Below are positions 39,975-57,029 of a stretch of 64,000 bases of DNA, piece after piece. The stretch lies in sequence record NC_007023.1; one strand, given 5' to 3'. The position numbers and the translations under genes were made by a program. The notes beneath the pieces were generated by a model, which saw only the letters and a program-made list of their open reading frames with translations, was not told where the DNA came from and made no database searches. The number at the start of each line of letters is the position of its first letter. The first letter of the stretch is position 1. Origin of the DNA: Escherichia phage RB43.

Positions 39975-39984
39975 TTAGTTTTTC

Positions 39985-40221
39985 TCAGTATTTGGATTTG
40001 GTTGTTTTGTGTACATTTAAAATGCTTTGGATTTTTTCGGAAATCGTTTGCTGGTCTGGTTCACATCCCAACTTACCGCCAATCGCCTTGTAAAAATCTT
40101 CAACAGAGCTTACGTTGAAATCCGGCATATGGAAACCTAACGAGTACATATGCGGATTGTGGAATTCGTAAACATCCACATTGTATTCGTTAAGATCGAA
40201 ACGTTCAAGATATTTCTTCAA
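39985..40221 (-). CDS. hypothetical protein (78 aa)
   Basis: ORF immediately upstream of vWA gene. Confidence 0.5.
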   Translation of the reverse strand: MKKYLERFDLNEYNVDVYEFHNPHMYSLGFHMPDFNVSSVEDFYKAIGGKLGCEPDQQTISEKIQSILNVHKTTKSKY

Positions 40222-40361
40222 AGAAAATAAATCGAACGGTAATGGGAGGTGCTGTTCAATCGTTACAGGTTCCCCCAGCTTGTGCGCTTTCAGGGGTTGC
40301 CCCTTTCGCGTATGTCAGTTCTGTTTTCATCAGTGGTGACTCTTTTGATGTATATTCAAGG

Positions 40362-40844
40362 TTACGGAAAGATGTTTCCATGTTCCAGTTGGGTTCCAAT
40401 CGGGCCGCACTCGTCAGAGTACGTAAACTCGTAGATAAACACGCCGTTTTGATTCCCGTACTTCGTGTTGTATTCTTCATACAGCCACATCTTGATCAGA
40501 GCGTCTTTCTCTTCGGTTTCTAAATCGTACCAATCCCGACCATCATATGCAAGCGCAATTTGCGGATTTGAACGATAACGGGTTTCGGCGCTGTCTTCGG
40601 TTTCCCAATCATAACGCTTATCATCATAATACGATTCAAAGCTATTACCCATGTGACCGCCTAAGTCACGGTGAACGTGTTGAACAACTTCTTCGGATGT
40701 CAGCGGAGGATTATAATAACCGCAATTGGGAGAACAATCACCCATCATTTCGCGAAGGTTGTCGATATCAATCGGATCTTTCGGGAACCGGACGATAAAA
40801 CTACTTGATGAACTATTGCTCACAAAACCAGAACGAATTTTCAT
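40362..40844 (-). CDS. Acidic protein, paralog B of MKIRSGFVSNSSSSSF family (160 aa)
   Basis: Identical 16-aa N-terminus to ORF 36445-36912; acidic, Tyr/Cys-rich. Confidence 0.6.
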   Translation of the reverse strand: MKIRSGFVSNSSSSSFIVRFPKDPIDIDNLREMMGDCSPNCGYYNPPLTSEEVVQHVHRDLGGHMGNSFESYYDDKRYDWETEDSAETRYRSNPQIALAYDGRDWYDLETEEKDALIKMWLYEEYNTKYGNQNGVFIYEFTYSDECGPIGTQLEHGNIFP

Positions 40845-41086
40845 TTTAACGCCTCGAATTTGATTTCTTTCAGTGATTGTGTGTGATTATAACAAACCAC
40901 TCCGCGATGTGTTTTCTTTCCGGTAAATCCGTCGAATATGGTGACATAATAATGATAGCAACAATCATCAAGAGGATTGTTTCTGATATAGTCTAACACA
41001 ACGTCCAACGATACGGTAGAGCATACGCAATCAGATTCATTGTCACGACCATCATAGAAATCTTTTTCAATACTATAAATTTTCAC
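40841..41086 (-). CDS. hypothetical Cys-rich protein (81 aa)
   Basis: ORF. Confidence 0.45.
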   Translation of the reverse strand: MKIYSIEKDFYDGRDNESDCVCSTVSLDVVLDYIRNNPLDDCCYHYYVTIFDGFTGKKTHRGVVCYNHTQSLKEIKFEALK

Positions 41087-41356
41087 GATACTTGCCTCAT
41101 GTTAGACATAATTTCTTCAAAAGTCACGGGGAATTCTTTGGGTTCGCAATCGTCATCCCATTCTTCTCGATATCCGTTAATTTTGCTAACCGCGATCATC
41201 TTATCGTTTTTCCCATACAGTCACTTCAATACGATCACCAAGATAGGGAAAGCTGGGGTGCTTGTTGATTACATCAACACACGTTTGAAGAGATTCAGAT
41301 ACTTGAATTACTTCACCAAAATCATAATCGCCGTGACGCGACAGAACATAAATCAT
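41083..41356 (-). CDS. hypothetical protein, apparently split at an A5 run (sense) near 41215 (about 89 aa if fused)
   Basis: ATG(rc) 41356; two consecutive protein-like frames joined by removing one A from GAAAAACG. Confidence 0.35.
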
Positions 41357-41544
41357 AAAACCCTCGCCCACCAAATAATGTCAGTAATTACGTCATAGAT
41401 CATGAGAGGGAACACTGTAAGAGCAATACACAAAATAAACACAGTTGCCCACAACCCCAAAACTTTACGACCCGATAAAACACATCCAATAACAGCAATC
41501 ATTCCTACTACTGCAATGATCAACATAATGATAGATGCAACCAT
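41353..41544 (-). CDS. small membrane protein (63 aa)
   Basis: Two TM helices. Confidence 0.5.
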   Translation of the reverse strand: MVASIIMLIIAVVGMIAVIGCVLSGRKVLGLWATVFILCIALTVFPLMIYDVITDIIWWARVL

Positions 41545-41585
41545 AATAAAACCCTCACGAAAAGCCCCTTTCGGGGCTTGATTAA

Positions 41586-41873
41586 TCAGTGTCCGAAGAT
41601 GTGTTTAACAGACTCAGCGAAAGCGTAAAACACCGGATTGTTTTCTTTTAGCATCGCTTCTGATTTCAGAAGATACTCGCTTTTGAACTTAGCACCGAAC
41701 AGGCAGTAAGAAAACGATTTGTCCCAGTAAAAGCAGTTGTAACCACCATCAACAAATCTCACTTCAACCAACAGATAACCCACATCTTCCGGTTTGGTAT
41801 TCGAATAATCTTTCAGAAGATTCGCGCTTACTACTTCGTATGCTTTGCCAGCAACCAAATCGTTATAAGTCAT
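41586..41873 (-). CDS. hypothetical protein (95 aa)
   Basis: ORF following hairpin 41558-41577. Confidence 0.5.
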   Translation of the reverse strand: MTYNDLVAGKAYEVVSANLLKDYSNTKPEDVGYLLVEVRFVDGGYNCFYWDKSFSYCLFGAKFKSEYLLKSEAMLKENNPVFYAFAESVKHIFGH

Positions 41874-41887
41874 GATGTGGTTCCTTT

Positions 41888-42358
41888 TCAGTTTCGTTTC
41901 GATAAAGTTAAGGTATCACTGTTCTTACGAAGATGCAAACACTTTTTTGAAGAATTTGTTTCCGGTCTTTCTTTGTATGGGCGCATGGTCAACCGCTTAC
42001 CGTCCAATACTGTTGGTTTTCCATCCAGTTCAATCAGGATAAAGTTGCCTTTGCGATACTTCAACACGCCCTGGCTTGCCGACCATTCATCGTTATCCCA
42101 GTGGTTGTAATGCCATTCAACAACGGTATCGATTGGTATTTCTGGTTGATTTCTCATATTTGCTTTCCTTCGTTCTGATGCTTCTTTCAATTGTCGTATT
42201 TGTGGTATCAACTGTTGTGGTGGAACAGTATCTTCCCGTTTCAATGCCTTTCGAACTTGATCAACAAACCATTCGTATTTCGGACGGCGGTTAAGTTCTT
42301 CCCTTAGTCGGGCATTCTCTTGTTCGGCAATGCTTGCGCGTTTTCTGTAATCGGTCAT
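41888..42358 (-). CDS. hypothetical protein with N-terminal coiled coil (156 aa)
   Basis: ORF overlapping methyltransferase stop by 4 nt (likely co-translated). Confidence 0.5.
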   Translation of the reverse strand: MTDYRKRASIAEQENARLREELNRRPKYEWFVDQVRKALKREDTVPPQQLIPQIRQLKEASERRKANMRNQPEIPIDTVVEWHYNHWDNDEWSASQGVLKYRKGNFILIELDGKPTVLDGKRLTMRPYKERPETNSSKKCLHLRKNSDTLTLSKRN

Positions 42359-43263
42359 AGAACTTTCCTTATCTGTTTGGCTATTGCCTCGATAACTGGC
42401 ACGGAAACGGAGTTACCCGCTTGCTTGTATGCTTGTTTTTTACTCGATGGAATAATAAACGAATCTGGGAAGCCCTGCAAGCGAAAACATTCACGCGGGG
42501 TTAATCGTCGTGGGTTCTTCCCATCCTGTAACACCAGACACTGAACGCCGTCCTTGTAGTATTGCGCTGTGATGGTTCCTGTGTGCGTAGAATCGGCTGT
42601 GACGGCCTGATAACCAAACCCCTTACCGTTTGCCTTATTTCGTTCCTTACGCTCTCTAAAGCCTTTCCACGCGTTATCTGATAGGGTGTACGAATCATCA
42701 ACATCTTCGAGGATATCACCTACGCGCGTAGGGGTGCGCGGGGGAACCGGAAACGAAAAGAATACATCATCCAGGAAGCAGACAATAAACACACGTTCAC
42801 GTCGCTGGGGTAATCCGAAATCTTTCGTATTCAGTCGTTGATAGAATACGTTGTATCCTTCGGCCTCCAGAAGCCCGTAAATCGTTTTAAACGTCTTTCC
42901 CTTGTCATGGGTTAGCAATTCAGGCACATTCTCAAAGAACAGCACACGGGGCTTTTTAGCGCGTATAATGCGGAGGATTTCAAAGAACACCGTACCGCGA
43001 ACATCATCGAAGCCCAGTTTTAATCCGGCTTTACTGAATGCCTGACACGGGAACCCAGCCAACAGGATATCGTGATCAGGTACTTTGTTTTCATCAATGG
43101 CGAACAAGTCACCTTCGAGATTATCACCGCCCCAGTTAGCGGCGTATGTTTGCTGTGCGAATTTGTCGATCTCAGCAGTAAGCACACATTCAACACCGTC
43201 AAATGCGCGATCAAAGCCCATACGAACGCCACCAACGCCAGCGCATAAATCAATCAGTTTCAT
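42355..43263 (-). CDS. DNA (cytosine-5)-methyltransferase (Dcm-like)
   Basis: Canonical m5C MTase motifs: I DLCAGVGG, IV GFPCQAFS, VI ENV, VIII QRRERVF, X GNSVSVPV. Confidence 0.9.
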   Translation of the reverse strand: MKLIDLCAGVGGVRMGFDRAFDGVECVLTAEIDKFAQQTYAANWGGDNLEGDLFAIDENKVPDHDILLAGFPCQAFSKAGLKLGFDDVRGTVFFEILRIIRAKKPRVLFFENVPELLTHDKGKTFKTIYGLLEAEGYNVFYQRLNTKDFGLPQRRERVFIVCFLDDVFFSFPVPPRTPTRVGDILEDVDDSYTLSDNAWKGFRERKERNKANGKGFGYQAVTADSTHTGTITAQYYKDGVQCLVLQDGKNPRRLTPRECFRLQGFPDSFIIPSSKKQAYKQAGNSVSVPVIEAIAKQIRKVL

Positions 43264-43290
43264 AAATATACCTAAAAAGAGGGTAATAAC

Positions 43291-43992
43291 ATGCTAATAT
43301 CAGCAAGCAGTGTAGACGAATTGAACAGCAAGGTCAACGAAATGCTGTCACAAGGGATGTACTTATGGGGAAGCCCGTTCGTTGTCCCATCCGATTATCT
43401 GAACCAAACACGATTCTTTCAACAGGTTTCAAACGTAAATCCTTCGAGCGGCGGAACCGATGGAAAGAGTGCGTATCAACTATGGGTTGAACAACCAGGC
43501 AATGAAGGGAAAACACTAGATGATTTCTTTGATTCCATTGCAGGGGTTCGCAAAAAATCAGAGGTGTTCTGGACGGGGCTTAGTCTGGTGATCCCAGAGG
43601 ATACGCCGACCAACTTCATCAACCTGATTAAAGGGACCATTCCGACTACCGGAACATTAGAACCGTTCTTCAAAATTACAGACAATAAGTTACACCCGTT
43701 TAACGAAAACTCAACATTAACGTTTAAGCTGAACCTGAAAGGTACTTTCACAGGGGCAACAACCGCACAGCGTAGCGTTACACTTGATTTTGTCGGTACA
43801 CAGGGCAACACCCTCACTCTGAACCGCAGCCAATCGGTAACTACTAGCACCCTTTCTTTCGTCACGTTCTTTAGTGTCGATAAAAACGGAAATATGGTTA
43901 CTAATGGTACTGCATTCAACATTTTCGCAAACGGTAGCCCGTTTACTGTATCCGAAGTTCTTTTAGTCGCCGAACAGCGTACTACTCAATAA
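43291..43992 (+). CDS. Lone plus-strand gene: beta-rich Thr/Asn/Gly-rich protein with tail-fibre-like motif (233 aa)
   Basis: AGAGGG RBS; motif GKSAYQLWVEQPGNEGKTLDDFFDSIAG resembles conserved tail-fibre segments; bounded by bidirectional terminator. Confidence 0.6.
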   Translation: MLISASSVDELNSKVNEMLSQGMYLWGSPFVVPSDYLNQTRFFQQVSNVNPSSGGTDGKSAYQLWVEQPGNEGKTLDDFFDSIAGVRKKSEVFWTGLSLVIPEDTPTNFINLIKGTIPTTGTLEPFFKITDNKLHPFNENSTLTFKLNLKGTFTGATTAQRSVTLDFVGTQGNTLTLNRSQSVTTSTLSFVTFFSVDKNGNMVTNGTAFNIFANGSPFTVSEVLLVAEQRTTQ

Positions 43993-44012
43993 CAAAAAAG
44001 CCCCGAAAGGGG
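43985..44012. terminator. Bidirectional terminator
   Basis: AAAAAAGCCCCGAAAGGGGCTTTTC. Confidence 0.7.
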
Positions 44013-44019
44013 CTTTTCT

Positions 44020-44283
44020 TTATGCTTCAAAATCAATTTCGTCGATCTTGTAAGACTCTTCATCGATATCAGCCCACAGAGTGACTTTAACCGTTTTACG
44101 GTCTTCGTACATGTCACGACCATCATAGCCGCCCGTGTACTCGCTGTGCGTCTGTTCATCCACTTCTAAACGCAGACTATCGCGCATGATTGGACAACAG
44201 CCTGTCCAGCGTAACAGAATCTGGGTGCTGTTCTGTGCCACCAACTCGAACATCTTTCAGGTGTAAAATAATATCGCTCATTA
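44020..44283 (-). CDS. one or two small hypothetical proteins (34 aa + 57 aa, or a fused form)
   Basis: Two overlapping protein-like frames (MSDIILHLKDVRVGG... and ...MRDSLRLEVDEQTHSEYTGGYDGRD...). Confidence 0.35.
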
Positions 44284-44559
44284 GTAGAACTTTCCATATG
44301 TGTTGAAATTGATACTTTCGTGGTTACGTTCATTGATCGTGATTTCATAATCGTAATCTTCATTAGTAACCGCGCGGTCGTGTTTGATAACGTTCACGTC
44401 ATAAACGCGGGATAACGCATGATACAAAGAATCACGGATCTTTTCAGCAATCTTCGCGGGTTCGCTATACATATTGAGCATATCAGCAACAATACCTTCT
44501 ACTCGCTGAATATCTCGCTGTTCGATGTATCCTACGTACAGGCTTACGTCTTTAATCAT
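44281..44559 (-). CDS. hypothetical protein (92 aa)
   Basis: ORF overlapping nucleotidyltransferase gene stop. Confidence 0.5.
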   Translation of the reverse strand: MIKDVSLYVGYIEQRDIQRVEGIVADMLNMYSEPAKIAEKIRDSLYHALSRVYDVNVIKHDRAVTNEDYDYEITINERNHESINFNTYGKFY

Positions 44560-45554
44560 TTGTAATACCCCAGAACATGATCTTTGTATACCTGTTCGAT
44601 AAAGTCATTCCAGAATTCCCGATCGACTTCTTTCGGATAGGTAGAGATTGCAGCAAGGCGTTCAACTTCGCCCATCACTTCCTCCAGTTTTTCCTGTACT
44701 TCGGCAAACGGGACATTACCAGCTTTAACCGATTTCAACAGGTCACTCTCAGGAAGAGGGTACACGATATCGCCGTGTTTGTAAATCTGTACTAACTGCA
44801 TACCACCGCGCAATGCGTGACTTAATGCTTTCCAATCGATCCCGTTGTTGGCTTCTGCTTGTCGTGCGCGTTCGCCATATTCATCCCAGAGCTTGTACAC
44901 GGATTTCTTCATTTCCGCTACGGTGATCGTGAACTGGAATTTACGACCCAATACTTCATAGAAATTCTGCATACCGCCTTTTTCGCTATAATGCAAAATA
45001 GAACGACAGAATTCATTGGTCGGTAGTTGGTCTTTGATGTCGCCAACTTTGATGTTTTCTATTGCATCACCCAGATTGGAAGGCATACGCACAACGCGAG
45101 TATTTGGGGTGTCTTGTAACACGTCATACACTTCACGCAGTGCAGCCAGGCGAGAACCTTTCACACCATATTTCGCGGCTTGCTTACGGACATAACCGAA
45201 CAGGCCAGTTAACTCCGTAGTGTAGAAACGCCAACGGTTAGCGCGGATATACTGCCAGATTTCAGAGTTAGCGATCAGCTTGCTATCATCAGCATGAAGC
45301 ATATCGAGCGCTACGGTATCACCATCACACGCAAGGCTGATGAACTTAGGCAGACTATACAACTGACGGTCTACGTCATCAACGGTGTTTTTAGAGTTCT
45401 TATCGCCCGTGCTCGTGTCGATAGTCTTCGGGGCTTTACCTAGCAAGATATCGCGTGGATGCGGGAGGAAGATCCCTTTATAATCTTTGTCGCTTGTCGG
45501 GGTGTTCAGCCCGTACAGGTGAGAACCGAACACAGTTTCCATTACAATTTTCAC
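44556..45554 (-). CDS. Pol-beta superfamily nucleotidyltransferase-like protein (332 aa)
   Basis: N-terminal minimal NTase motif VFGSHLYGLNTPTSDKDYKGIF (GS...hDhD) with later acidic residues; helical C-terminal domain. Confidence 0.55.
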   Translation of the reverse strand: MKIVMETVFGSHLYGLNTPTSDKDYKGIFLPHPRDILLGKAPKTIDTSTGDKNSKNTVDDVDRQLYSLPKFISLACDGDTVALDMLHADDSKLIANSEIWQYIRANRWRFYTTELTGLFGYVRKQAAKYGVKGSRLAALREVYDVLQDTPNTRVVRMPSNLGDAIENIKVGDIKDQLPTNEFCRSILHYSEKGGMQNFYEVLGRKFQFTITVAEMKKSVYKLWDEYGERARQAEANNGIDWKALSHALRGGMQLVQIYKHGDIVYPLPESDLLKSVKAGNVPFAEVQEKLEEVMGEVERLAAISTYPKEVDREFWNDFIEQVYKDHVLGYYK

Positions 45555-45943
45555 AATTCAACTCCCAGAGTTTTTGCAATTTCTTTCAATTGGTCAGTTG
45601 TGATATCAGGAACAGTCACACCGTAACTATGTCCAAACACGTATTTGATCTTAGCGGATAATTCCTCGCGATACAACTTTTCTTTGTACGCCTCTTCGCT
45701 GCGATAAACCTTAATACCGTTCCAATCGTTAGAACTTCCGGTTTTGCGGTCCAGCTTTTCGACGCAATATGATTTAAGATCTGTTTCTGTAGGGTTAGGC
45801 GATGCGTACAGATACTGACGCGCAACCTTATGAACATACAGAATACGCGGTTTTACACGGCAACGGTTATCATATCCACGTTCACCAGGATCATATAAGG
45901 TATCGCCTACTTTAACATCTGTTAAACTCATTTCATTTTCCAA
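45551..45943 (-). CDS. hypothetical protein (130 aa)
   Basis: ORF overlapping NTase start by 4 nt. Confidence 0.5.
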   Translation of the reverse strand: MENEMSLTDVKVGDTLYDPGERGYDNRCRVKPRILYVHKVARQYLYASPNPTETDLKSYCVEKLDRKTGSSNDWNGIKVYRSEEAYKEKLYREELSAKIKYVFGHSYGVTVPDITTDQLKEIAKTLGVEL

Positions 45944-46179
45944 CGTTTTGTTTTATCACAATAGAATACTGGCAATTTGGACAGGACAGGAGTCACCACA
46001 TCTTCACCAGTTTTCGTGTTATGCGTCATTTCGATTGTCAGCGAACGACCAGGCACGGGTTTCACAATATCCAGTTCCATGATCTCCCGATTACCTTTTG
46101 TGTTGATTTCTGCAACATAGTAATCGTTCCCGTTGATGTTAACAACATCACCCATAATTACGCTTCTGCTGTGTTTCAT
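45928..46179 (-). CDS. hypothetical protein (83 aa)
   Basis: ORF. Confidence 0.45.
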   Translation of the reverse strand: MKHSRSVIMGDVVNINGNDYYVAEINTKGNREIMELDIVKPVPGRSLTIEMTHNTKTGEDVVTPVLSKLPVFYCDKTKRWKMK

Positions 46180-46565
46180 TTGTTAATAAACCTTAACGTA
46201 ACGTGCAGGGATTCTAACACTCGTGCGTCAGTACCGTCAATAATCATCATTCCGATAAATTCTTTAGAGCTAACGGAATACATGCGACATAACAGGGAAC
46301 CATCTTTCGCGATATATTCAACGATATACTCACGGCGTGATGATTTGAACGAATCACCGACCATGACCGGACGTTCGACATTCTGGCGTTTTTTGGCTGT
46401 ATAACACAACTCGTTTTCGCCGTTTGGTGCGCAATCTTTACTTCCGATCGACATATCCGTTACAGTAACAGAATTCACAGAACCGCCGATCAGTAAGCTG
46501 GGTTCGCCAGCACCTACTTTCATGATTAGTGTCGAACGGTTTGCAACGGTTTCAGTCACAAACAC
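46176..46565 (-). CDS. hypothetical protein (129 aa)
   Basis: ORF; start uncertain. Confidence 0.45.
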   Translation of the reverse strand: MFVTETVANRSTLIMKVGAGEPSLLIGGSVNSVTVTDMSIGSKDCAPNGENELCYTAKKRQNVERPVMVGDSFKSSRREYIVEYIAKDGSLLCRMYSVSSKEFIGMMIIDGTDARVLESLHVTLRFINK

Positions 46566-46716
46566 GTAGCACTGTGGATTCGTTTTCTTTGGCGATTGAC
46601 TGCAAAATGAATTTGGTCTTCTCAGGCGTTCTCGAATGTCCGATTTAAAACACGATCACCGATCGTCAATGTTGTGGTTGAATCGACATCTTCGGTAGTA
46701 CGAATAATTGCTGTTT

Positions 46717-46986
46717 TCATGATAATTTCCTCTCAAATTCTTCATCAGATTTCCAGTACACGTTAAAGTTACGGCAATCGTGATCAGAAGTCAACGTATA
46801 TTTTTCATTTGTTTTTTCATCGGTGATAACCATCGTTTCATTCTCGATCGAGTCAACACCGTACACAAACACTTTGTCACCGCGTTTATTCAGGAACGCA
46901 TCACCTGTTTCAATCAACTGCCAGCAACTAACTGGCAACCCGCCCGAACAGATCGGACGGTTTACTAAACAGTAAGGATGTTTCAT
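46717..46986 (-). CDS. hypothetical Cys-containing protein (89 aa)
   Basis: ORF. Confidence 0.45.
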   Translation of the reverse strand: MKHPYCLVNRPICSGGLPVSCWQLIETGDAFLNKRGDKVFVYGVDSIENETMVITDEKTNEKYTLTSDHDCRNFNVYWKSDEEFERKLS

Positions 46987-47171
46987 TAATCAGCAAGCCT
47001 TATATTGTTCGGATCGGGAACGAAAGTATCCTTTTGAGTAACCATAAACACCAGGAAAGTAGCGATTTCAGGATCATCAATCACGTTGAATTTACGCTTA
47101 CCTTTCCAACGCACAGCGAGTTTGCCATTGTCCAGTTTCTTGATTGCTGCGACTTCTGATTTCGTAGTCAT
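46986..47171 (-). CDS. hypothetical protein (61 aa)
   Basis: ATG(rc) 47171 with AAAGGAG RBS downstream of conserved promoter. Confidence 0.5.
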   Translation of the reverse strand: MTTKSEVAAIKKLDNGKLAVRWKGKRKFNVIDDPEIATFLVFMVTQKDTFVPDPNNIRLAD

Positions 47172-47199
47172 GATTATCTCCTTTCGTTTCAGTACCCCT

Positions 47200-47228
47200 A
47201 ATATAACAAAAGCCCTACACGAATGCAA
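47200..47228 (-). promoter_or_regulatory. Conserved promoter cassette (TTGCAT-N17-TATATT)
   Basis: Minus-strand GCCCTTGCATTCGTGTAGGGCTTTTGTTATATT then leader ACTGAAACGAAAGGAG. Confidence 0.55.
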
Positions 47229-47333
47229 GGGCTTTTTCAACTTATCGACAGAAAGGACAACTAAAAGAGTCGCCGCTTCCACCATGTTTACGACACGCCG
47301 ATTTCTCGATCGGTGTCATTGTTAAAATTTTCA

Positions 47334-48392
47334 TTAGATACCTGTAAATGCTACGACAATCTGATAGTGGTCATCGAAGAATTCCCCTTGTCGTTGTACG
47401 ACCTCATGTAAGGGCATCCAGAACGCGTCTAACGCATCGTCAGAACCGCCCATAATACGTGGTAAACTTCCATCATTGTTAGGTTCTAACTTGATGTATT
47501 GCGCCACAGTCGGTTTTGAGAAGTGTACAGAACGCTTCGGATGATCGAACAGCATCGAATTGCGGATTGAACCACGAATAACCTTTTCAGGAACCTTGAT
47601 CCGAACCTCTTCGAGCAGTTCGCGGATCGCACAATCCAGGAACGTTTCATTTGCGTTTTTGTGTCCACCTGGCAGGGCTAGTGCGCCTTTTCCTGGTGCA
47701 AACTTACGACGAATTACCAGCAGGTGATTGTTGCACACAACCACGTTATCACCCGTGCAGCAGTTTAGCGCTTCTGGGTATGGGTAATTTTTGAATTTCT
47801 CCAATTCACTTTCCCATTTTTCGAATTCGTAGTACAGTCGCCAAAATGTATCCGTCATCATCCATGAATTGATATAACTCACAGTAGACGGAGGAACATA
47901 ACGAGATAGTTTCTTGTCCCATCCATTCTTATGCAAAAAGGATGGTTGGTCGTAAATCGGTCGCAGATAAATCTTCCCATCAACCTTAACCGGATCTACC
48001 GGAACATGAGTCCATCCAAACGCTTTCAGCCAGTATGAATCAGCATCTTTTTCGTAACCATAGATCGCGATGTTATCGCCTTTGGTTTCGTTGATTGCTG
48101 TACGAACAGAAGTTTTCCATTTTTCTTCGTTGTAAAGATAATCAGGAATATGAGCAAACTTAACACGACAAACATCTTCGTATTTGTATTCAGTCATCAG
48201 CCACGAAAAGATCATTCTTTCGCGTTCGTTCGCGGTCAGAGGATTTAAAACGTTGGGGTATGCGTAGGCAGAACCCAGGAGGATGTAAACGGTCTCCGAC
48301 TCTTCCAGTGCTTTACGCACCATCGCCGCATGACCATTATGGAAAGGTTGGAATCTGCCAATCACGACAGCTTTATCAAATTTGTGTTTCAT
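47334..48392 (-). CDS. Bifunctional NMN adenylyltransferase / Nudix hydrolase (NadM-Nudix type)
   Basis: N-terminal HxGH motif GRFQPFHNGH; C-terminal Nudix box GGHKNANETFLDCAIRELLEEV; GGAG RBS before ATG(rc) 48392. Confidence 0.85.
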   Translation of the reverse strand: MKHKFDKAVVIGRFQPFHNGHAAMVRKALEESETVYILLGSAYAYPNVLNPLTANERERMIFSWLMTEYKYEDVCRVKFAHIPDYLYNEEKWKTSVRTAINETKGDNIAIYGYEKDADSYWLKAFGWTHVPVDPVKVDGKIYLRPIYDQPSFLHKNGWDKKLSRYVPPSTVSYINSWMMTDTFWRLYYEFEKWESELEKFKNYPYPEALNCCTGDNVVVCNNHLLVIRRKFAPGKGALALPGGHKNANETFLDCAIRELLEEVRIKVPEKVIRGSIRNSMLFDHPKRSVHFSKPTVAQYIKLEPNNDGSLPRIMGGSDDALDAFWMPLHEVVQRQGEFFDDHYQIVVAFTGI

Positions 48393-48588
48393 AACGTGCT
48401 CCACGTTTAAAGGGTAATCATAAAACAGACGCAATAATCAATACACCAAGCAAACCGCCAATAAAGCCGAAGAATGACGAAATGAAGATAGACAATATAA
48501 TCTGTTTTATGTTCATTGTAGTATTCTCGTTTTAAGAGTCAAGCCCCCAGAACGGGGGCTTTAAAATCTTATTTACGAGAATCGAAAA

Positions 48589-49494
48589 TCACTTTGCCAG
48601 CGTAATCAGAACCCATGACAGTTTGAGGTACACCACCTTGTAGCGGGTAGAGTAGTTCATCTGTACATCCAGTTCTTTCCAGCGGATCATTTCTGGTGTA
48701 ATGGTGCGCTGCAACACGGCGTTCGCTTCTGCTTCTTTACGGGCCGCATACAGTTTAGCATCAGCATCACGTTCGTTTGCGAGTGCTTCATTTTCACGCG
48801 CCTGACGATTTGCTTCTGCCTGTTTTACCTGTTGTTGAGAAGTTTGCTCAACCTTCGCCAGTTCAGCACGAGCGGCGTTAACCTGTTCTTCACGGATCTT
48901 CGTGTTAGTTACCTGTTCCATGATAACATCTGGCAGGGTAATATCCTGCAAGAATACCTGTTTCACGGTGTAACCATACGGTCGCGCATACTCTTCAACT
49001 TCCTGCTGAATCGCAGTTTGCAACTGGTTCTGGATCTTTGCGTCGAACAGATCCTGTGCTTTCGGAACTGATTTACCGAATTCGCGAACAGTGGACAGCA
49101 ATTTTTCGGTTACGTATTTATCCAGAGCTTGTTCCTGGTCGCCAGCGTTGATACGGTTAATCGGTGCTTTGTTACCGTCGAATTGCAACATCACGGTCAT
49201 GTCAACAGTCGATTTAAATTTATCCTGGGACGGAACCTGCAACTTGTCGAATTTCTTCGCGATATCTTTCGTACTGAAAGTATCGAAGTCAGCCAGTGGG
49301 TTTACGATATGGAAACCAGGCATGACAGGTTTCGGAGAAACTTTACCCATAAAGGTCTGGGTTTTGACCGTACCGTCCTGTACGATGGTAAAGGAGTTCG
49401 GAACCAGCCACAGTGCAGCAACTACGCCCAGAGCGATCAGAGTGGTTTTCTTCGGGTTGTCACGGATAGTATTAATATTCATAGTATGTCTCAT
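48589..49494 (-). CDS. SPFH/band-7 (prohibitin-like) membrane protein
   Basis: N-terminal TM helix then SPFH-like core and long Ala/Glu/Gln-rich coiled coil. Confidence 0.6.
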   Translation of the reverse strand: MRHTMNINTIRDNPKKTTLIALGVVAALWLVPNSFTIVQDGTVKTQTFMGKVSPKPVMPGFHIVNPLADFDTFSTKDIAKKFDKLQVPSQDKFKSTVDMTVMLQFDGNKAPINRINAGDQEQALDKYVTEKLLSTVREFGKSVPKAQDLFDAKIQNQLQTAIQQEVEEYARPYGYTVKQVFLQDITLPDVIMEQVTNTKIREEQVNAARAELAKVEQTSQQQVKQAEANRQARENEALANERDADAKLYAARKEAEANAVLQRTITPEMIRWKELDVQMNYSTRYKVVYLKLSWVLITLAK

Positions 49495-49713
49495 TTGATT
49501 AAAGTTTATGTTTCAATTCGATAGTTATTCTATCATCACCATTTCGCTTGTCAAATACTTTTTTAAGAAAGTTTTGTCAGCTTGTAAATCGTTTGATAGC
49601 ACAAGCCTTTGATCTCGTCCAGTATGTTCTTCAATGAACTGTCTACTGATTCGTAGATATCGTTGGCTTCGGTGGCTATTTTACGGAGATACGCTACCGT
49701 GTCAAGCACATTT

Positions 49714-49947
49714 TCAACTTTTAATACGGGGTTTATAACGTCCTGTAATGCCTATATGGATTTCGGTGAATTTGTCTACCAAATCCTGCATATCTTCGTA
49801 AAAACCCTCGTATGCCTTATGTTGCGAATATGACCCCGTCATAAAATGTGCGCTGTGCATATACGTAACAGACATCAGGCATGTGCCAATAAAGGCATCT
49901 ATTTTACTTGTATTATCGCGCTCGACGATTTCGTTAAACGTTTGCAT
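49714..49947 (-). CDS. hypothetical protein (77 aa)
   Basis: ORF. Confidence 0.45.
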   Translation of the reverse strand: MQTFNEIVERDNTSKIDAFIGTCLMSVTYMHSAHFMTGSYSQHKAYEGFYEDMQDLVDKFTEIHIGITGRYKPRIKS

Positions 49948-49957
49948 CTTTCATCCC

Positions 49958-50242
49958 TTATGAACGGTGAATAGAAGCAAATTCAGTTGCTACCCTAAGC
50001 CCTAAGCGTTTGCATTCAGGTTCAGATTTACACTGCTTCTGCTGCCATTTTCGTTCCATGTAATTATAGAATAGTTCACTGGTATTTACGCTGGGAGGGA
50101 TGGTGTCTAGATACACCTGTAGCGCTGCATTGATGTAATAGTCGAACTCTTTTGCGACCACAGAACGGTCGTCTGCTTGCGATGCTGGAGACAAAATTAA
50201 CAAACCAAACATCAGCGCTTTTGATATGCGTTTAATGTTCAT
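49958..50242 (-). CDS. secreted small protein with signal peptide (94 aa)
   Basis: Signal peptide MNIKRISKALMFGLLILSPASQA; Cys pairs. Confidence 0.55.
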   Translation of the reverse strand: MNIKRISKALMFGLLILSPASQADDRSVVAKEFDYYINAALQVYLDTIPPSVNTSELFYNYMERKWQQKQCKSEPECKRLGLRVATEFASIHRS

Positions 50243-50347
50243 AGCAATTCTCTAAGTGCTTACGGATCAACAATAGACCCGTTCCTGTATATATTTATAG
50301 CAAAAAAGGGGCTAAAAGCCCCTTATGTTAAATTAATCTAAAAATAC

Positions 50348-50741
50348 TTATGTTATATCGTACCAGCATAAACCACGTTCATAAGCACGGATCTTATTGG
50401 CATTGTGAATGTTTTCATCCCATCCAATCACACCCGCTTTCATGCGTTTCAGTTCCTGGCGCATTTTAACGCGTACTTTTGAATCAATCTTTTTCTTTGC
50501 GATCGAAAGCATCGCGGGAGATATCACCATGCGCCTTGTTGCCGTCACGATTCAAATTGTTATCGAACCGGATATATGCGCAACCTGATTTATGTTTCCA
50601 GTTGGTTGTGTACCAACGAAGACCATCAGGATCGCGCCCGTGTTGTGCATAATACTCAGAATATGCCTTTGTCTCTTCGATCTGTTCCAGAGAAGAAAGG
50701 TCACGGATAGGAACATATTTGTTACGGTAAGTACGGCTCAT
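50348..50741 (-). CDS. hypothetical protein, apparently split at an A5 run (sense) near 50500 (about 129 aa if fused)
   Basis: Two overlapping protein-like frames joined by removing one A from GAAAAAG. Confidence 0.35.
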
Positions 50742-50771
50742 AGATATCTCCTTTTGTTTTCTAATTGCAGA

Positions 50772-51353
50772 TTAGCAATCTACGCCAACTTTATCAAGCA
50801 CTTTTTCATGATAATGTTTCCGGCATAACGAAACATATTTGTCTTCGGCTCCGATTTCGACTTGCTCCCCTTCGGTTACGAAGTTGCCTTGTGCGTCGAT
50901 ACGCGCGACCGTGGTTGCTTTGCGCCCACAGTGACACATTCCCCGTAGTTCTCGGATCTCGTCAGCCCATGCGAGCAACCAGTAAGAACCCTCGAACAGA
51001 TTCAACTGAAAGTCGGTACGCAGCCCGTAACACATTACAGGAATTTCGAGTTCATCAACAACGCGACACAGATCGAAAACGTTTTTCTTCGAAAGGAACT
51101 GTGCTTCGTCAACAAAAATACAGGAAATATTATTCCGGCGTTGAATGTCCCAGAACAGATCCATGCTGGGTGAAATCAGTTCACATGATGCGCTTAACCC
51201 TACGCGAGAAGACACCGTATGTGAACGAGTATCAAGCATAGGCTTGTAAATCACTACGTTCATACCACGTTCTTTGTAGTTGTATGCGTCGGTCAGCAGT
51301 CGTGCGCTTTTACCAGCATTCATTGATGCGTAATGATAATACAGTTTAGCCAT
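50772..51353 (-). CDS. tk: Thymidine kinase
   Basis: 193 aa; P-loop SMNAGKSARLL, VDEAQFL, zinc ribbon CHCGRKA...SLCRKH; collinear with T4 Tk. Confidence 0.92.
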   Translation of the reverse strand: MAKLYYHYASMNAGKSARLLTDAYNYKERGMNVVIYKPMLDTRSHTVSSRVGLSASCELISPSMDLFWDIQRRNNISCIFVDEAQFLSKKNVFDLCRVVDELEIPVMCYGLRTDFQLNLFEGSYWLLAWADEIRELRGMCHCGRKATTVARIDAQGNFVTEGEQVEIGAEDKYVSLCRKHYHEKVLDKVGVDC

Positions 51354-51529
51354 TTGCAGCGTCCTTGATCTCTTTCTTCACGAACAGAATGATATCTTCG
51401 ATTTTGTTTTCGATGTAGCACATGTTTGACATTACGCGCTTCTGTATCATCATCGGTCGCGTAGTCCATGTATAATTCACCCAGTTCTTTCAGTTTGTGC
51501 GTCAACAGCTTTTCTTCTTGCGGTCTCAT
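51320..51529 (-). CDS. hypothetical protein (69 aa)
   Basis: ORF. Confidence 0.4.
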   Translation of the reverse strand: MRPQEEKLLTHKLKELGELYMDYATDDDTEARNVKHVLHRKQNRRYHSVREERDQGRCKWLNCIIITHQ

Positions 51530-51711
51530 TCGCGAGATTCCCTTCTTTCATCGTCGATTAGCTGGTCGATGAAATCAACGATGTCATCAAACCAATCTAC
51601 GGCTTCTTGAGCAGAAACCGAACCTTTCCCACTACCACTCATAAAGCGTTCGCGAGCGTCAGCAAACTTTTCGAGTTTTGAATACAGCTTTTCTTTATGT
51701 TCCTGGATCAT
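51526..51711 (-). CDS. hypothetical acidic protein (61 aa)
   Basis: ORF. Confidence 0.45.
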   Translation of the reverse strand: MIQEHKEKLYSKLEKFADARERFMSGSGKGSVSAQEAVDWFDDIVDFIDQLIDDERRESRE

Positions 51712-52200
51712 GATAAATCTACCGTTTTCATGTTAACGTAGGGATCGAAATGTACCACGATGATTGGATAGTCGCCAGTGGCCTTATCAATGATGTCATA
51801 GATGCGCATCCAATCGCCCCCAGCAAGCCCCGCACCAATAAGAGGGGTAACGATAGGCAATTGAACAGGACACGCCTTAGCGCGTTCTACAGCAGATTTG
51901 AAGCATGATTCAATCGCATCATAATCGACTTGTGGGCCTTCACCCCAAAATTTGTATTGGGTGTACGCGTTAAACAGAAGTTTGTTTCCGTCCTGATAAA
52001 CGGAGTTACGCCCCAACTTAGATTGATTGCCCTTCATCGTCATTGCGTCTTCTTTAAACGCACCAGGGATCTTTTTCTTCACTTCTTTGGCGATACCCGC
52101 GCCCATGTTACCAGAAACCAGTTACCACCCCATGAATTAGGTGTACATCGCGATTAAGGAACAGTTCAACCGCGTTACCTTTGATTTCTTTAATGATCAT
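51708..52200 (-). CDS. TARG1/OARD1-like macrodomain protein, interrupted by a frameshift
   Basis: N-terminal 30-codon ORF (MIIKEIKGNAVELFLNRDVHLIHGVV...) then +1 frame MGAGIAKEVKKKIPGAF... resembling the TARG1 CRMGAGIAVLFKKKFG core; frames join if one T is removed from sense GGTTTC or a 7-nt unit from GTTACCA-GAAACCA-GTTACCA. Confidence 0.6.
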
Positions 52201-52434
52201 TGTTTATTACCCATTCGATAGCCGATCCCAATAACCAGCCCCATTATAATCACAACAGTGATCAGTATTGCAAATTGCATACCTATGCTCATTTGAATTG
52301 ATCATCCCATATTTGCCACGCTTCCAGTTCATCATTGTATTCAGGTAATGAACGTTCGCCAGGCTTCATTAAACAGTACCATATGATAATTGCAACAGCA
52401 ATAACCATTCCATAGAAAATAATTAGTCCTATCA

Positions 52435-52758
52435 TCAATATAATCCTATTCCGGCGTTGTACTCGTCAACCAAGTAGGTACGCAACTTTTCACAACGTTC
52501 CTTATTTGGTGCGCTAGTACATAGTTTCATCATCGGTTCAGACTGCAAAAACTCACGCTGTTTAGCCAGCTTTTGACGCTTAACCAGGTGCGCGTTTTCT
52601 TCGCCCCACACATAAGCAGCGTCCAGTTGTTCCGCGATCACCTGATAACATACAGCAGTATCTTTAATGTCGCGATGGTCGCAGAGTTCAGAAAGACGGT
52701 TGTCGTCTGCATACGCGAAACCAGAAACCAGAGTCAATAAAAGCGCAAGTTTTTTCAT
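52435..52758 (-). CDS. secreted small protein with signal peptide (107 aa)
   Basis: Signal peptide MKKLALLLTLVSGFAYA; four Cys. Confidence 0.55.
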   Translation of the reverse strand: MKKLALLLTLVSGFAYADDNRLSELCDHRDIKDTAVCYQVIAEQLDAAYVWGEENAHLVKRQKLAKQREFLQSEPMMKLCTSAPNKERCEKLRTYLVDEYNAGIGLY

Positions 52759-52759
52759 G

Positions 52760-53425
52760 TTAACCTCGATATGTCACGTCTTCGATAGGGTTATAGTAAT
52801 GATTCTTGCAAATATACGCAAGTGTTTTTCGTAGGCTTGCGCTGGCAAACAGAGGATCGCGGTTGTACGTCATAGAACGATAGGTGTGTACTTCCCAGAC
52901 TTCCCGATCAGTATCATACACGAAGCAATAGCTTTCATATTCAGACAGCATATGATCCATGATGTCGAAATACAGTTGTTTGTTTTCGTTCATCTTAACA
53001 AACGGCTTGATCAACTTGATTGCTTCATAAACCTGGTCAAGATTGCTATGGTCTTCATTCATCGCAACACGAATAACTGATTGATTCGTGTCTGGATTAT
53101 ATGTGTTGGTTGCAACACCAAGTTCATAAAAGAAGTTAGCAGCATCGCGATATGTTTCACCACCAGTGCGGGGAGAATTCAGGTAATACTCAATACGTTT
53201 TTCTACAGAGGAACTCCGCATAATGACGGCCTTTATGTCATCAATTCGTTCCTGCAAGTCAATACGCTTTTTGTTTAGTTCCGTAGCACGTTTTTGGAGT
53301 GGTTCAAGCTGGGTTCTTACTTCGTCAAACTCACTTGTAATGGCTGTCAACTGCTTTTCTAAGGTTTGGCTCAACATAGAAGTTGCGTTTTCGTTTACCT
53401 TATTCATAGCTTCTGCGTATGTCAT
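52760..53425 (-). CDS. hypothetical protein with N-terminal coiled coil (221 aa)
   Basis: ORF. Confidence 0.5.
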   Translation of the reverse strand: MTYAEAMNKVNENATSMLSQTLEKQLTAITSEFDEVRTQLEPLQKRATELNKKRIDLQERIDDIKAVIMRSSSVEKRIEYYLNSPRTGGETYRDAANFFYELGVATNTYNPDTNQSVIRVAMNEDHSNLDQVYEAIKLIKPFVKMNENKQLYFDIMDHMLSEYESYCFVYDTDREVWEVHTYRSMTYNRDPLFASASLRKTLAYICKNHYYNPIEDVTYRG

Positions 53426-53427
53426 GA

Positions 53428-53829
53428 TTATTCCCCTAATACATATTCAAAACGATGTTCCAGCGCATCATTAACGCTTTCGTAAACTCCCCCAATACGT
53501 GTAGCCTTACGAATGCCGGACTTGACAATATTCATGATCTCGACGTTACTACCCCAAACATTCAGGTTGAAATACAATTCGCAATCGATCGGATGGTCGT
53601 TTGTGTCGTAATACATGTCACAACCTTCGCAAACAAACAGTGTACGCTTTTCGTCGCCATACTGGAAGTGAATGTTAAACGCAGACATACTATCTTTATC
53701 AACAGTAATGTCAATGATGCGAACCTTTGGGTTGCTTTTCAGTTCGGTAAGAACACTTTGGATAACATGCAGAGTGTTCAGCTTGACAATCCCTACTCTG
53801 CCTACAATGACTCGATGTGATGTACTCAT
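53428..53829 (-). CDS. hypothetical protein (133 aa)
   Basis: ORF downstream of conserved promoter. Confidence 0.5.
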   Translation of the reverse strand: MSTSHRVIVGRVGIVKLNTLHVIQSVLTELKSNPKVRIIDITVDKDSMSAFNIHFQYGDEKRTLFVCEGCDMYYDTNDHPIDCELYFNLNVWGSNVEIMNIVKSGIRKATRIGGVYESVNDALEHRFEYVLGE

Positions 53830-53857
53830 AATTTAATCCTCAATGGTTGATGCACAC

Positions 53858-53886
53858 ATAATAAAAAAGCCCCTGCAAAAATGCAA
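53858..53886 (-). promoter_or_regulatory. Conserved promoter cassette (TTGCAT-N17-TATTAT)
   Basis: Minus-strand GCCCTTGCATTTTTGCAGGGGCTTTTTTATTAT. Confidence 0.55.
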
Positions 53887-53896
53887 GGGCTTTTGA

Positions 53897-54532
53897 TCAA
53901 ATAATTTGCTTTTCTTCTAACAGTTTCGCGGTATGGTTAACCATGCGAGCATATTCACGGGCTTCTTTCTTTCCATACTTAAAGCCAGCGTTATAACTCG
54001 CGAGCGCCTTTTTCAAGTCGCCTTTGTGGTAATCAAGCCAGTATTCCAGTTCATGAATAGCGTACTTAGAACCGCCCCGAAGGGTTTCAAGCGTTTTGAT
54101 TACTACGCGTTTGGAATATGATTTATCCATCCGTGCTAAAGCACTATTTGCGGTTACTTGCCAGCACCCGTAAGCGTGATGACCTTTCTTACCCTTTCCG
54201 GTGTTCTCACATGCGCGAGACTCGATCCAGGCAATAGCCGCTAAATGATATCCCAAACGTTTCGATTGTTCCGTTTCAACAGGTTTTGCAGTTTTGAGAT
54301 CATACTCGTTTCCGATCCTGAAAGCATACTCCAAAACCTTTTTCTGCTTTGGTGTAATTTCGTCCAGTTCCTTCACATATGATGGTGCTTTCTTGATCAC
54401 TGTTGCTTGTTGAAGCGGTAATGTTGACTGATAAGCCGGAAGTTTTTCGATGAATTCCCCAAGCGGATCTGTCTTTGCGTGACCAGAAAAAGAGCATAAG
54501 AAAATGCTGGTCGCTAAAATAATTTTCTTCAT
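53897..54532 (-). CDS. Secreted lytic transglycosylase (SLT domain; T4 Vs.1-like)
   Basis: Signal peptide MKKIILATSIFLCSFSGHA; SLT motifs AIAWIESRA and YGCWQVT. Confidence 0.65.
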   Translation of the reverse strand: MKKIILATSIFLCSFSGHAKTDPLGEFIEKLPAYQSTLPLQQATVIKKAPSYVKELDEITPKQKKVLEYAFRIGNEYDLKTAKPVETEQSKRLGYHLAAIAWIESRACENTGKGKKGHHAYGCWQVTANSALARMDKSYSKRVVIKTLETLRGGSKYAIHELEYWLDYHKGDLKKALASYNAGFKYGKKEAREYARMVNHTAKLLEEKQII

Positions 54533-54584
54533 TGATTAATACCTTTTGTAACAAGAGAGGGCAATGATACCCTCGCCTTATTAT

Positions 54585-55145
54585 TTATGCAAGTACAATC
54601 TTGCATTCCACCAGTTGATTTTGAATGAATTCAGCAACGTTATAGTTCATAATAGAACGGTTTGCATCATACAAAGCAACCAGGTCTTCAAAAGAAACCT
54701 GAACCACTTTTTCGAAGTGTGTACCCCAGTTAGTAGCAAGGATCTCTTTGTTGTCAAATCCACAGTCAGGACTGAATATGGCACGATATTTGTAACCAGA
54801 ATAATCCCGAAGACGGTTAACATTATGCGCGTTGCTGGTAATCAAAAACTGACCATGTTTAGTTTGAACAACGAAGAAATAACCAAAGAGTTCCTCACTA
54901 CCAAACATATTTTCGAACTTATTGATTTTGTCTTCTTTATCAACACGGGTTTCGATCATCTTCCAGACCTGTTCATATTCAGGCCAATCGTGTTCAACAA
55001 CAACCGCTTTCAGTGGTTCCTTTCCGCGTTTAACGCGAGATTTTTCTAATTTGCGCAACAGCGCACGAAGTTTCAGTTGATCATCATAATCCATATGATC
55101 CGTATCTGAAAGTTTGATTACAGCATAACGATTTTCACGATTCAT
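54585..55145 (-). CDS. hypothetical protein (186 aa)
   Basis: ORF. Confidence 0.5.
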   Translation of the reverse strand: MNRENRYAVIKLSDTDHMDYDDQLKLRALLRKLEKSRVKRGKEPLKAVVVEHDWPEYEQVWKMIETRVDKEDKINKFENMFGSEELFGYFFVVQTKHGQFLITSNAHNVNRLRDYSGYKYRAIFSPDCGFDNKEILATNWGTHFEKVVQVSFEDLVALYDANRSIMNYNVAEFIQNQLVECKIVLA

Positions 55146-55152
55146 TTCACAA

Positions 55153-55320
55153 TCACCTTATTAGAACAAACCGGACAAGTGATCACGCGGTAGGTGTCTC
55201 GACCACCAGTGTAATCGGTATGAACTTCTTCACGCACATCAGATGCGACGTAAGACAAACGAGATTCACATTTGCGGCAAGTAACCTCTTTTGGCTTCAT
55301 TTCAATGACTTGTACCATAA
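55153..55320 (-). CDS. small zinc-ribbon protein (about 55 aa)
   Basis: CxxC...CxxC (TCRKCES...ITCPVCS). Confidence 0.4.
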
Positions 55321-55325
55321 TAACC

Positions 55326-55523
55326 TCAGTTCAATTTTAATTTAACTTCACTACCGCATTTCGGGCAGGTAATGAACTTTATCACTTTGTAGTCAGCAGC
55401 ACGATAGAAACCATTGTAGATAGGTTTCGTCCTGCCTTGAATGTCTTCAAGTTCGTATTCTAACCCACTTTTGCAGGATTCGCAAACAGTAATTAGCTTT
55501 GGTGATACAATAACGTTAATCAT
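55326..55523 (-). CDS. small zinc-ribbon protein (about 65 aa)
   Basis: CxxC...CxxC (VCESCKS...ITCPKCGS); paralogous pattern to neighbour. Confidence 0.4.
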   Translation of the reverse strand: MINVIVSPKLITVCESCKSGLEYELEDIQGRTKPIYNGFYRAADYKVIKFITCPKCGSEVKLKLN

Positions 55524-55560
55524 ATATTCCTCACGAAAAAAGGGGCCGAAGCCCCCTTTG

Positions 55561-56910
55561 TTAAAAGTTATCTTCGACGAATGCAGCGAGTCGCCCACGA
55601 TATACGGTATCCAGGATCACATGACTTGAATGACCGTACTCTTTAAGTTTTTCAACCGCATACACAAAACCGTTGTTTACGGCAGTGTTGCGCGGGTTGT
55701 CAATCTGTTTAATGTTCCCGCATAGTATCAGAAGTGTGTTCTCACCGCAACGGGAAATGATGGATTTAATTTCGTGATTGCTCAAGTTTTGACATTCATC
55801 AACAATCAGAACGGAACCTTTACCCGGATCAGGATGCCCGATTGAGCGCCCACGGAAGTAATACAGGCTGGGGAACTGTACAACGCCTTTCTCTAACAGC
55901 CCTTCGACGTACTTATCAACTTCCGGTTGATCTTTAAACAGAATGTTCAGGCTTGTAATACATGGTTCAATAGACGGTCGTAATTTTTCTCCCAGTGTAC
56001 CAGGTAAGAACCCGATTTCGCCCGACAGTGGGCTATCCGATTTTACATACATCACATTAGCAAAATGACCAGCATTTACCAGGTGCATAGCACCAGCAAC
56101 CGCCAGCATTGTTTTACCGGAACCAGCCGCGCCCATAATGGTCACTGCATCAATGTTTTTATCCAGAATGGAATCAACGAAAGACGCTTGCAACGCATCG
56201 CGAGGTTGAATTGTTTTCATCAGCTTGCGTTTCATCAGGTGTTCGTGTTTCAACGGCAACACTTCAAGCTGAAACTCTCCAGCATCCACCACACGCCCGA
56301 CAACCTCACCATAGGACAGGATGTATTGGTTAGGGTAGAAATCTACCTTGTAGTCGGCAAACGACGCATAGCTAATCAACGCAATATCGCCATTGTACCC
56401 AACAACATCAACGATGTTCCAGAAGTCGGTCAGTTCAATATAACCGGAATACAGAACATCACTATCTTTCAGTGTGTCATCGCCCGTGTACTGTTCAACA
56501 GGACAACCCTTAGACATTGCGATCAACAACATATTGATATCGCGGGTTACTAAGGTCGCTTTCTCCTGCAAACAGGTAGCGATAATGCGAGCATCTTGCT
56601 TATCAAGCGGGAACTCTTCACCACCGACATAATCGACGATACGCAGAGTAACGCTATCGGGTAAAGCTGGGTTTGTTTGGCCCAACGAAACCCCAGTTTG
56701 GGTAATTGCTTCATACTTCTGTCCCAGGACAATTTTAGACAGAAGTCGGATCACTAAACGTGCTTCGCGGGAAGTGTGTTCCTTTGATTTCAGGTGATCC
56801 AGTTCTTCCATTGTTGCAGCGGTAATGATGATCTCAGTACCAGGGGCAACATAAGAATAGATTGAATATGGGTTCGAGATTAAAACGTTGGTATCTAGAA
56901 CATATTTCAT
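55561..56910 (-). CDS. PIN-PhoH fusion ATPase (PhoH2/YlaK-like)
   Basis: N-terminal PIN domain (MKYVLDTNVLISNP...) and C-terminal PhoH P-loop GAAGSGKT with DE box LIVDECQN; AGGAAAA RBS. Confidence 0.85.
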   Translation of the reverse strand: MKYVLDTNVLISNPYSIYSYVAPGTEIIITAATMEELDHLKSKEHTSREARLVIRLLSKIVLGQKYEAITQTGVSLGQTNPALPDSVTLRIVDYVGGEEFPLDKQDARIIATCLQEKATLVTRDINMLLIAMSKGCPVEQYTGDDTLKDSDVLYSGYIELTDFWNIVDVVGYNGDIALISYASFADYKVDFYPNQYILSYGEVVGRVVDAGEFQLEVLPLKHEHLMKRKLMKTIQPRDALQASFVDSILDKNIDAVTIMGAAGSGKTMLAVAGAMHLVNAGHFANVMYVKSDSPLSGEIGFLPGTLGEKLRPSIEPCITSLNILFKDQPEVDKYVEGLLEKGVVQFPSLYYFRGRSIGHPDPGKGSVLIVDECQNLSNHEIKSIISRCGENTLLILCGNIKQIDNPRNTAVNNGFVYAVEKLKEYGHSSHVILDTVYRGRLAAFVEDNF

Positions 56911-57029
56911 AGAAGTTTTCCTGTTAATTGCGAGGTACGCGGATTCGCACCCCGCGTACTGCAATTACATACCCAAACGGATAATGTGAATGTATGGGAA
57001 AGGATGCAGGTTACTATTTCTCATGCAGA

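Follow-up and report, generated by a model that had tools for sequence, protein, structure and literature searches.

The predicted NatV (NadM-Nudix) gene of Escherichia phage RB43, its Nampt partner and its flanking mini-ORFs

The closest described system is the NAD+ reconstitution pathway 2 (NARP2) of phage KVP40, in which NatV and NadV together make NAD+ and completely abolish defence by Thoeris and DSR2 (Osterman et al. 2024, 10.1101/2024.02.11.579819). NARP1 (Adps and Namat) also rebuilds NAD+ from NADase products (10.1101/2024.02.11.579819). Its Namat is homologous to Nampt, but it needs a Prs-like ADPR-PP synthetase and involves no NMNAT. NARP3, composed of the NadR-like Bas30_86 and the PnuC-like Bas30_87, resembles NatV in its NMNAT domain and in the principle of restoring NAD+; its NMNAT is, however, fused to a ribosylnicotinamide kinase rather than to a Nudix domain, and its partner is a nicotinamide riboside transporter. 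In bacteria, NadM-Nudix enzymes such as slr0787 of Synechocystis (PDB 2QJO) and NadM of Francisella tularensis (2QJT/2R5W) serve housekeeping NAD salvage and recycling.

The stretch analysed here, referred to as the window, comprises 64,000 nucleotides of the genome of Escherichia phage RB43 (NC_007023.1). It contains a gene, RB43ORF138c, that is probably (at about 0.9, judged from its sequence) the orthologue of natV, encoding one of the two enzymes of NARP2 (NadV/NatV salvage). RB43 differs from KVP40 in genus and host (Pseudotevenvirus on enterobacteria). The finding carries little biological weight, as the enzyme was already annotated in RB43-like phages and the Nampt is already included in the NARP2 census; it merely confirms what would be a full NAD+ rebuilding pair in coliphage RB43. 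As by-products, errors in RB43 reference proteins were flagged, together with what look like two conserved micro-genes flanking natV that are missing from most annotations.

The natV gene and its product

The original prediction placed in the window an ORF at 47334-48392 carrying the motif GRFQPFHNGH and a Nudix box; both motifs were located (Table 1) and the corresponding domains matched. Pfam detected CTP_transf_like (PF01467, E=2e-8) and NUDIX (PF00293, E=3e-14), both above the gathering score, and Pfam and PDB alignments place the NMN adenylyltransferase domain at the N-terminus and the Nudix domain, of the ADP-ribose pyrophosphatase type, at the C-terminus, the same two-domain architecture as in KVP40 NatV. 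The seven top NCBIfam matches are PRK05379 'bifunctional NMN adenylyltransferase/Nudix' models, full length and with E-values down to 9e-72. Their equivalog scores all stay below the curated cutoffs (242 bits versus 397), which points to a diverged phage branch, distinct in this respect from the bacterial enzymes. PHROG 395 matches at E=3e-93, and NadR models match weakly, over the NMNAT domain alone. The family matches are far beyond chance. Residues 2-349 align collinearly with residues 4-337 of slr0787 (PDB 2qjo, E=7e-53), and residues 4-347 with residues 6-342 of Francisella NadM (PDB 2qjt, E=2e-43); NatV of the KVP40-like phage ValKK3 is 40% identical over 98% of the length. The NadM-Nudix/NatV-type identity proposed beforehand is upheld by these alignments.

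In an alignment of nine phage homologues that includes ValKK3, residues G12, R13, F14, H18, G20 and H21 of the HxGH motif are invariant, as are the catalytic residues R257, E258, E261 and E262 of the Nudix box. A catalytically dead HxGH or Nudix motif had been named as a finding that would speak against the assignment; on alignment both motifs are intact. The box reads G243-x5-E250-x7-R257-E258-L-L-E261-E262-V-R-I, compared with the consensus Gx5Ex7REUxEExGU. The last consensus G is replaced by R, as in slr0787; the bacterial NadM-Nudix enzymes, which share the HxGH motif, have R or N at this position. Together these data support a bifunctional enzyme of the NadM-Nudix/NatV type, with NMNAT and ADP-ribose pyrophosphatase activities predicted from homology.

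The exact protein of the window is RB43ORF138c (YP_239114.1) of the 180,500-bp RB43 reference genome, and the region shares 99.8% identity with isolate GVA of phage RB43. The same genomic site, flanked by an SPFH/band-7 gene and a 61-aa ORF, holds orthologues with 72-97% identity in every Pseudotevenvirus and Slopekvirus genome (RB16, Lw1, Miller, CfP1, GuL6, Matisse, KP27 etc.). The RB16 orthologue, RB16p129, bears the name 'bifunctional protein: NMN adenylyltransferase/NUDIX hydrolase', and such naming has been in use since 2010. The gene is the catalogued natV, already known, and nothing in it is new biology. ValKK3 has a second, stand-alone 'nicotinate-nucleotide adenylyltransferase' gene (ORF97) about 650 bp downstream of natV, with no equivalent beside RB43 natV. 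The SPFH/band-7 gene upstream of natV is called 'lipoprotein' by RefSeq and PHROG.

The natV gene belongs to an early-type block of minus-strand genes and lies behind a sigma-70-like promoter and ahead of a terminator-like hairpin. The promoter is probably the early promoter of the natV unit; its equivalent in the Klebsiella phage Matisse is a perfect TTGACA-16-TATAAT. Terminators are annotated at the site equivalent to the hairpin in CfP1, Miller and Matisse. The two elements bracket the unit in a way that fits early expression by the host RNA polymerase.

Table 1. Positions of features of the natV locus and of related loci (window positions unless a genome or locus is named)
Feature	Position	Strand	Remarks
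NatV/NadM-Nudix CDS (RB43ORF138c)	47334..48392	minus	352 aa; ATG at 48392, TAA at 47336..47334
GRFQPFHNGH	48330..48359	minus	aa 12-21; first ATP-binding motif (HxGH) of HIGH nucleotidyltransferases
Nudix box GGHKNANETFLDCAIRELLEEVRI	47598..47669	minus	aa 242-265; matches pattern G-x5-E-x7-R-E-U-x-E-E
Putative sigma-70-like promoter TTGACT-16-TACAAT	48515..48542	minus	directly after the hairpin trailing the SPFH gene
Terminator-like hairpin followed by T-run	47213..47230	minus	closes the natV/mini-ORF unit
Cys/His mini-ORF MKILTMTPIEKSACRKHGGSGDSFSCPFCR	47242..47334	minus	30 codons; ATG overlaps natV stop (TAATG)
Hydrophobic mini-ORF MNIKQIILSIFISSFFGFIGGLLGVLIIASVL	48418..48516	minus	32 codons; one predicted transmembrane helix
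SPFH/band-7 gene	48589..49494	minus	directly upstream of the natV unit
Segment bounded by two compensating 1-nt indels	47940..47973	minus	compared with RB43-GVA and all relatives, one base is missing at ~47973 and one is extra at 47940
Indel sites relative to RB43-GVA	40293, 40343, 40368, 41207, 41879, 41954, 44189, 44204, 46569, 46644, 47215, 47940, 47973, 48637, 49728, 50516, 51425, 52112-52128		
NatV ORF of RB43-GVA	78,938-79,996		
Nampt ORF of RB43-GVA	150,873-152,306		477 aa (reference copy 476-477 aa)
Conserved hypothetical of RB43-GVA	149,001-149,585 (L008:19002-19586)		194 aa; downstream of rnlB, 1.3 kb upstream of Nampt
ValKK3 ORF97	L003:21676-22302		
GAP32 NatV and Nampt	L018:2480-5686		
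Other Cys/His microprotein loci	L019:1510-1587, L020:1501-1578, L021:1501-1578, L022-L040		

The Nampt partner and the proposed pathway

The window has 14 ORFs of 330 aa or more, none of them Nampt-like; nine were scanned with Pfam and the rest judged by their RB16 counterparts. The nine, which have no obvious T4 counterpart, gave ligase, baseplate, VWA, PhoH, SPFH and similar matches, none of them NAPRTase-like. Four unscanned ORFs match the RB16 genes gp47, gp46, NrdA and NrdB by size and order; RnlA may be a fifth counterpart of this kind. The original prediction had likewise seen no Nampt-like ORF in the window and regarded the gene as half of a pathway with its partner elsewhere. The partner does lie outside the window, but the genome holds more than the half: the genome-wide search for a Nampt/NadV homologue that the prediction proposed leads to RB43ORF255w (YP_239231.1), which is on the same 180,500-bp contig and completes the pair.

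The distance between the two genes is about 71-72 kb in RB43 (the Nampt gene lies ~55 kb past the end of the window), and they share no operon, so that any co-regulation would be conjectural. The RB43-GVA Nampt is 99% identical to its RB16 orthologue and scores 458.6 bits with NCBIfam PRK09198 (cutoff 405); it shares 50-51% identity with the Nampt of nt-1, a KVP40-like phage. In RB16 the orthologue is RB16p239, a 477-aa 'putative nicotinate phosphoribosyltransferase' at 150.5 kb with the Pfam domains NAMPT_N and NAPRTase. This protein is listed as 'Nmnat-associated' (NARP2) in Table S2 of Osterman et al., a class other than that of NARP1, and no Adps (the Prs-like ADPR-PP synthetase of NARP1) is annotated anywhere in RB16. 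Among phage records, at an identity of at least 60%, 175 have NatV and 178 have Nampt. Linkage varies with the phage lineage. The two genes do not adjoin in RB43, RB16 or ValKK3, and KVP40-like phages resemble RB43 in carrying them unlinked in a T4-like (Straboviridae) genome; they are close together in GAP32. In this jumbo Cronobacter phage they are ~600 bp apart with one 171-aa ORF in between. Pfam revealed no further NAD or ADPR enzyme among the neighbours of either gene. The conserved hypothetical protein upstream of the RB43-GVA Nampt has a weak, sub-threshold Pfam match to DNA_processg_A (DprA family, E=1e-4).

With natV and RB43ORF255w in one genome, RB43 would hold the full known pathway. 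That RB43 carries the complete two-enzyme NARP2 is supported by every feature that a sequence can test, the ISxTxxR motif in this record excepted (see below). Homology, domain architecture, motif integrity (the sequencing artefact aside) and the presence of the partner gene in the genome were established directly, and from homology to KVP40 NatV/NadV and to slr0787/FtNadM we infer the following reactions. The phage Nampt (RB43ORF255w) would convert nicotinamide and PRPP to NMN, from which the N-terminal domain of NatV would form NAD+ with ATP. The Nudix domain would cleave ADP-ribose, and possibly also NAD(H), to AMP and ribose-5-phosphate, which the host Prs could turn back into PRPP. The two proteins would in this way rebuild NAD+ from nicotinamide and ADPR, the leftovers of NAD-depleting defences. 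E. coli itself is not known to have a Nampt, so the phage would supply a two-step path that leads directly from nicotinamide. The RB43 pair may have an anti-defence role, by analogy with KVP40 NARP2.

The main task of the enzymes might instead be auxiliary metabolism in general: they would raise or keep up NAD+ for phage nucleotide metabolism, ADP-ribosylation and other processes that consume NAD in the infected cell, and would not be directed specifically at NAD-depleting immunity; this is possible at a rather low probability and would be compatible with the NARP2 assignment. KVP40 NARP2 raises NAD+ in defence-free cells as well (10.1101/2024.02.11.579819), the pathway is reported to have been described at first simply as a route of NAD+ salvage (Lee et al. 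2017, as cited in later papers), and the surroundings of natV include early genes and genes of nucleotide metabolism, tk and nrd among them. A mainly metabolic function is less easily reconciled with the total cancellation of Thoeris and DSR2 defence by the KVP40 pair (10.1101/2024.02.11.579819). The Nudix/ADPR branch, moreover, is suited to the recycling of NADase products. E. coli has its own NAD salvage and de novo synthesis, and this host redundancy also argues against it.

Probable reference errors and the identity of the enzyme

Eleven codons of natV (residues 141-151) are out of frame in the window, which reads IYLRPIYDQPS where the relatives read DLSATDLRPTI. This is the only difference between the NatV proteins of the window and of RB43-GVA; RB16p129 and the other Pseudotevenvirus and Slopekvirus orthologues are in frame here, so that the out-of-frame form is confined to the RB43 reference copy. 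The stretch contains the second ATP-binding motif, ISxTxxR (SxxxxR), which is scrambled in the window and of the DLSATDLR/LSATDLR type in RB43-GVA and eight of eight relatives in the nine-sequence alignment (for example LSATDLR in RB16, ISATDFR in ValKK3 and INSTEMR in GAP32). In the DNA of the window one base is lacking in GGGAAAG and one is in excess at the CCATC/TTTTT junction, ~33 nt apart; the indel-free forms of the two sites on the coding strand are GGGAAAG and CCATCTTTTT. The Ser and Arg of ISxTxxR contact the beta and gamma phosphates of ATP (PMC12470169; PMC5889475), and the scrambled motif, if real, would be expected to weaken ATP binding.

A double frameshift truly present in the sequenced RB43 stock would have cost the protein SxTxxR and crippled its NMNAT, leaving mainly a Nudix ADP-ribose pyrophosphatase, perhaps selected for on account of a cost or toxicity of NARP2 in E. 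coli. Besides the reading of the window itself, the toxicity that made KVP40 NARP2 uncloneable in E. coli (Osterman et al., 10.1101/2024.02.11.579819) is in keeping with such a loss, but the pattern of differences renders it very improbable. Over 18 kb (38996..57007), 21 single-base indels and only two substitutions separate the window from the independently sequenced RB43-GVA; the indels often fall in short homopolymer runs and often come as compensating pairs. Thirteen of the sites could be tested in RB16, and at each of them the GVA form aligns gap-free and the window form needs a gap, making the window the odd one out each time. Similar frame damage is seen in two other reference ORFs. RB43ORF255w has a local compensated frameshift relative to RB43-GVA (VFREK-CR for VVPVKNAV, residues ~110-116), and the 1-nt indel at 48637 gives the SPFH/band-7 ORF a changed C-terminus and a length of 301 aa, against 308 aa in RB43-GVA and all relatives. 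A density of ~1.2 indels per kb would be incompatible with a viable phage. A truly inactivated NMNAT was rejected on this indel pattern and on the agreement of RB16 with GVA, for which reasons the double frameshift in natV is almost certainly a base-calling error of the reference record and not a product of evolution. The record as a whole probably contains about 1.2 indel errors per kb, corrupting many annotated ORFs. Residues 141-151 of the database entry for RB43ORF138c are accordingly to be taken as wrong and as hiding ISxTxxR, with local corruption of the same kind in the Nampt and SPFH ORFs, and the RB43-GVA sequence is preferable for cloning or modelling of these proteins.

Least probable of the readings considered is a generic cytidylyltransferase-like/Nudix fusion with another substrate and no link to NAD+: 'cytidyltransferase' is the sole name given by RefSeq and PHROG and the NCBIfam equivalog matches are all below cutoff, but the top matches are all NMNAT-specific (PRK05379, archaeal NMNAT TIGR01527, NadR NMNAT) with PPAT and other cytidylyltransferase families far lower, the protein aligns collinearly with two NadM-Nudix enzymes whose biochemistry and structure have been characterised, and NatV strictly co-occurs with Nampt.

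Mini-ORFs flanking natV

Two mini-ORFs flanking natV had been predicted with 29 and 31 codons; both exist, on the natV strand, and each is one codon longer than predicted. Both are conserved and look like real genes. Their origin as chance ORFs was rejected on the conservation of frame, length and start, on the third-position bias of their variation and on their presence in other genera and families. Searches of Pfam, PHROGs and PDB for a known family gave nothing significant for either microprotein.

In seven Pseudotevenvirus genomes and in the Slopekvirus Matisse the hydrophobic mini-ORF upstream of natV is unchanged in length, frame and start. Third codon positions account for 13 of the 23 variable columns, and in nine codon columns the variation is exclusively synonymous. 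A tblastn search with the peptide gave no hits, an outcome that probably reflects the low-complexity filter. The ATG of the mini-ORF overlaps the -10 hexamer of the sigma-70-like promoter; transcripts from this promoter would therefore start inside the ORF, and translation could come only from read-through transcripts.

The overlap of the Cys/His mini-ORF with the natV stop suggests translational coupling. Its core, which starts at M6 (47319) in RB43 behind a five-residue N-terminal extension (MKILT), is always 25 aa long and follows the pattern MTPIEK-x2-C-x2-H-GGSG-x4-CP[FY]C[KR] (27 loci, 13 sequence variants). The mini-ORF was found in RB43, GuL6, CfP1, Lw1, Xman and EcRAM-01; unlike RB43, RB16 and Miller have no such ORF beside natV, where it is deleted. 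With tblastn the peptide was found in 80 phage records, ~70 of them of Drexlerviridae (Tls, Stevie, YSP2, U136B, Bas12 etc.) and nearly all in unannotated DNA; in the Drexlerviridae the ORF has 25 codons and follows a strong Shine-Dalgarno sequence. A strict back-translated pattern of the core matched 19 viral contigs and gave no match in 185,579 species-representative bacterial and archaeal genomes. The Drexlerviridae genomes, of ~50 kb, are absent from the phages with NatV matches, which makes it probable that the microprotein functions independently of NAD+ salvage. It is somewhat favoured that this mini-ORF, with its translation coupled to the end of natV, codes for a true microprotein of the zinc-knuckle-like kind and is an unannotated gene moving horizontally between Straboviridae and Drexlerviridae, which may have a host-takeover or anti-defence role of its own that requires no link to NAD+.
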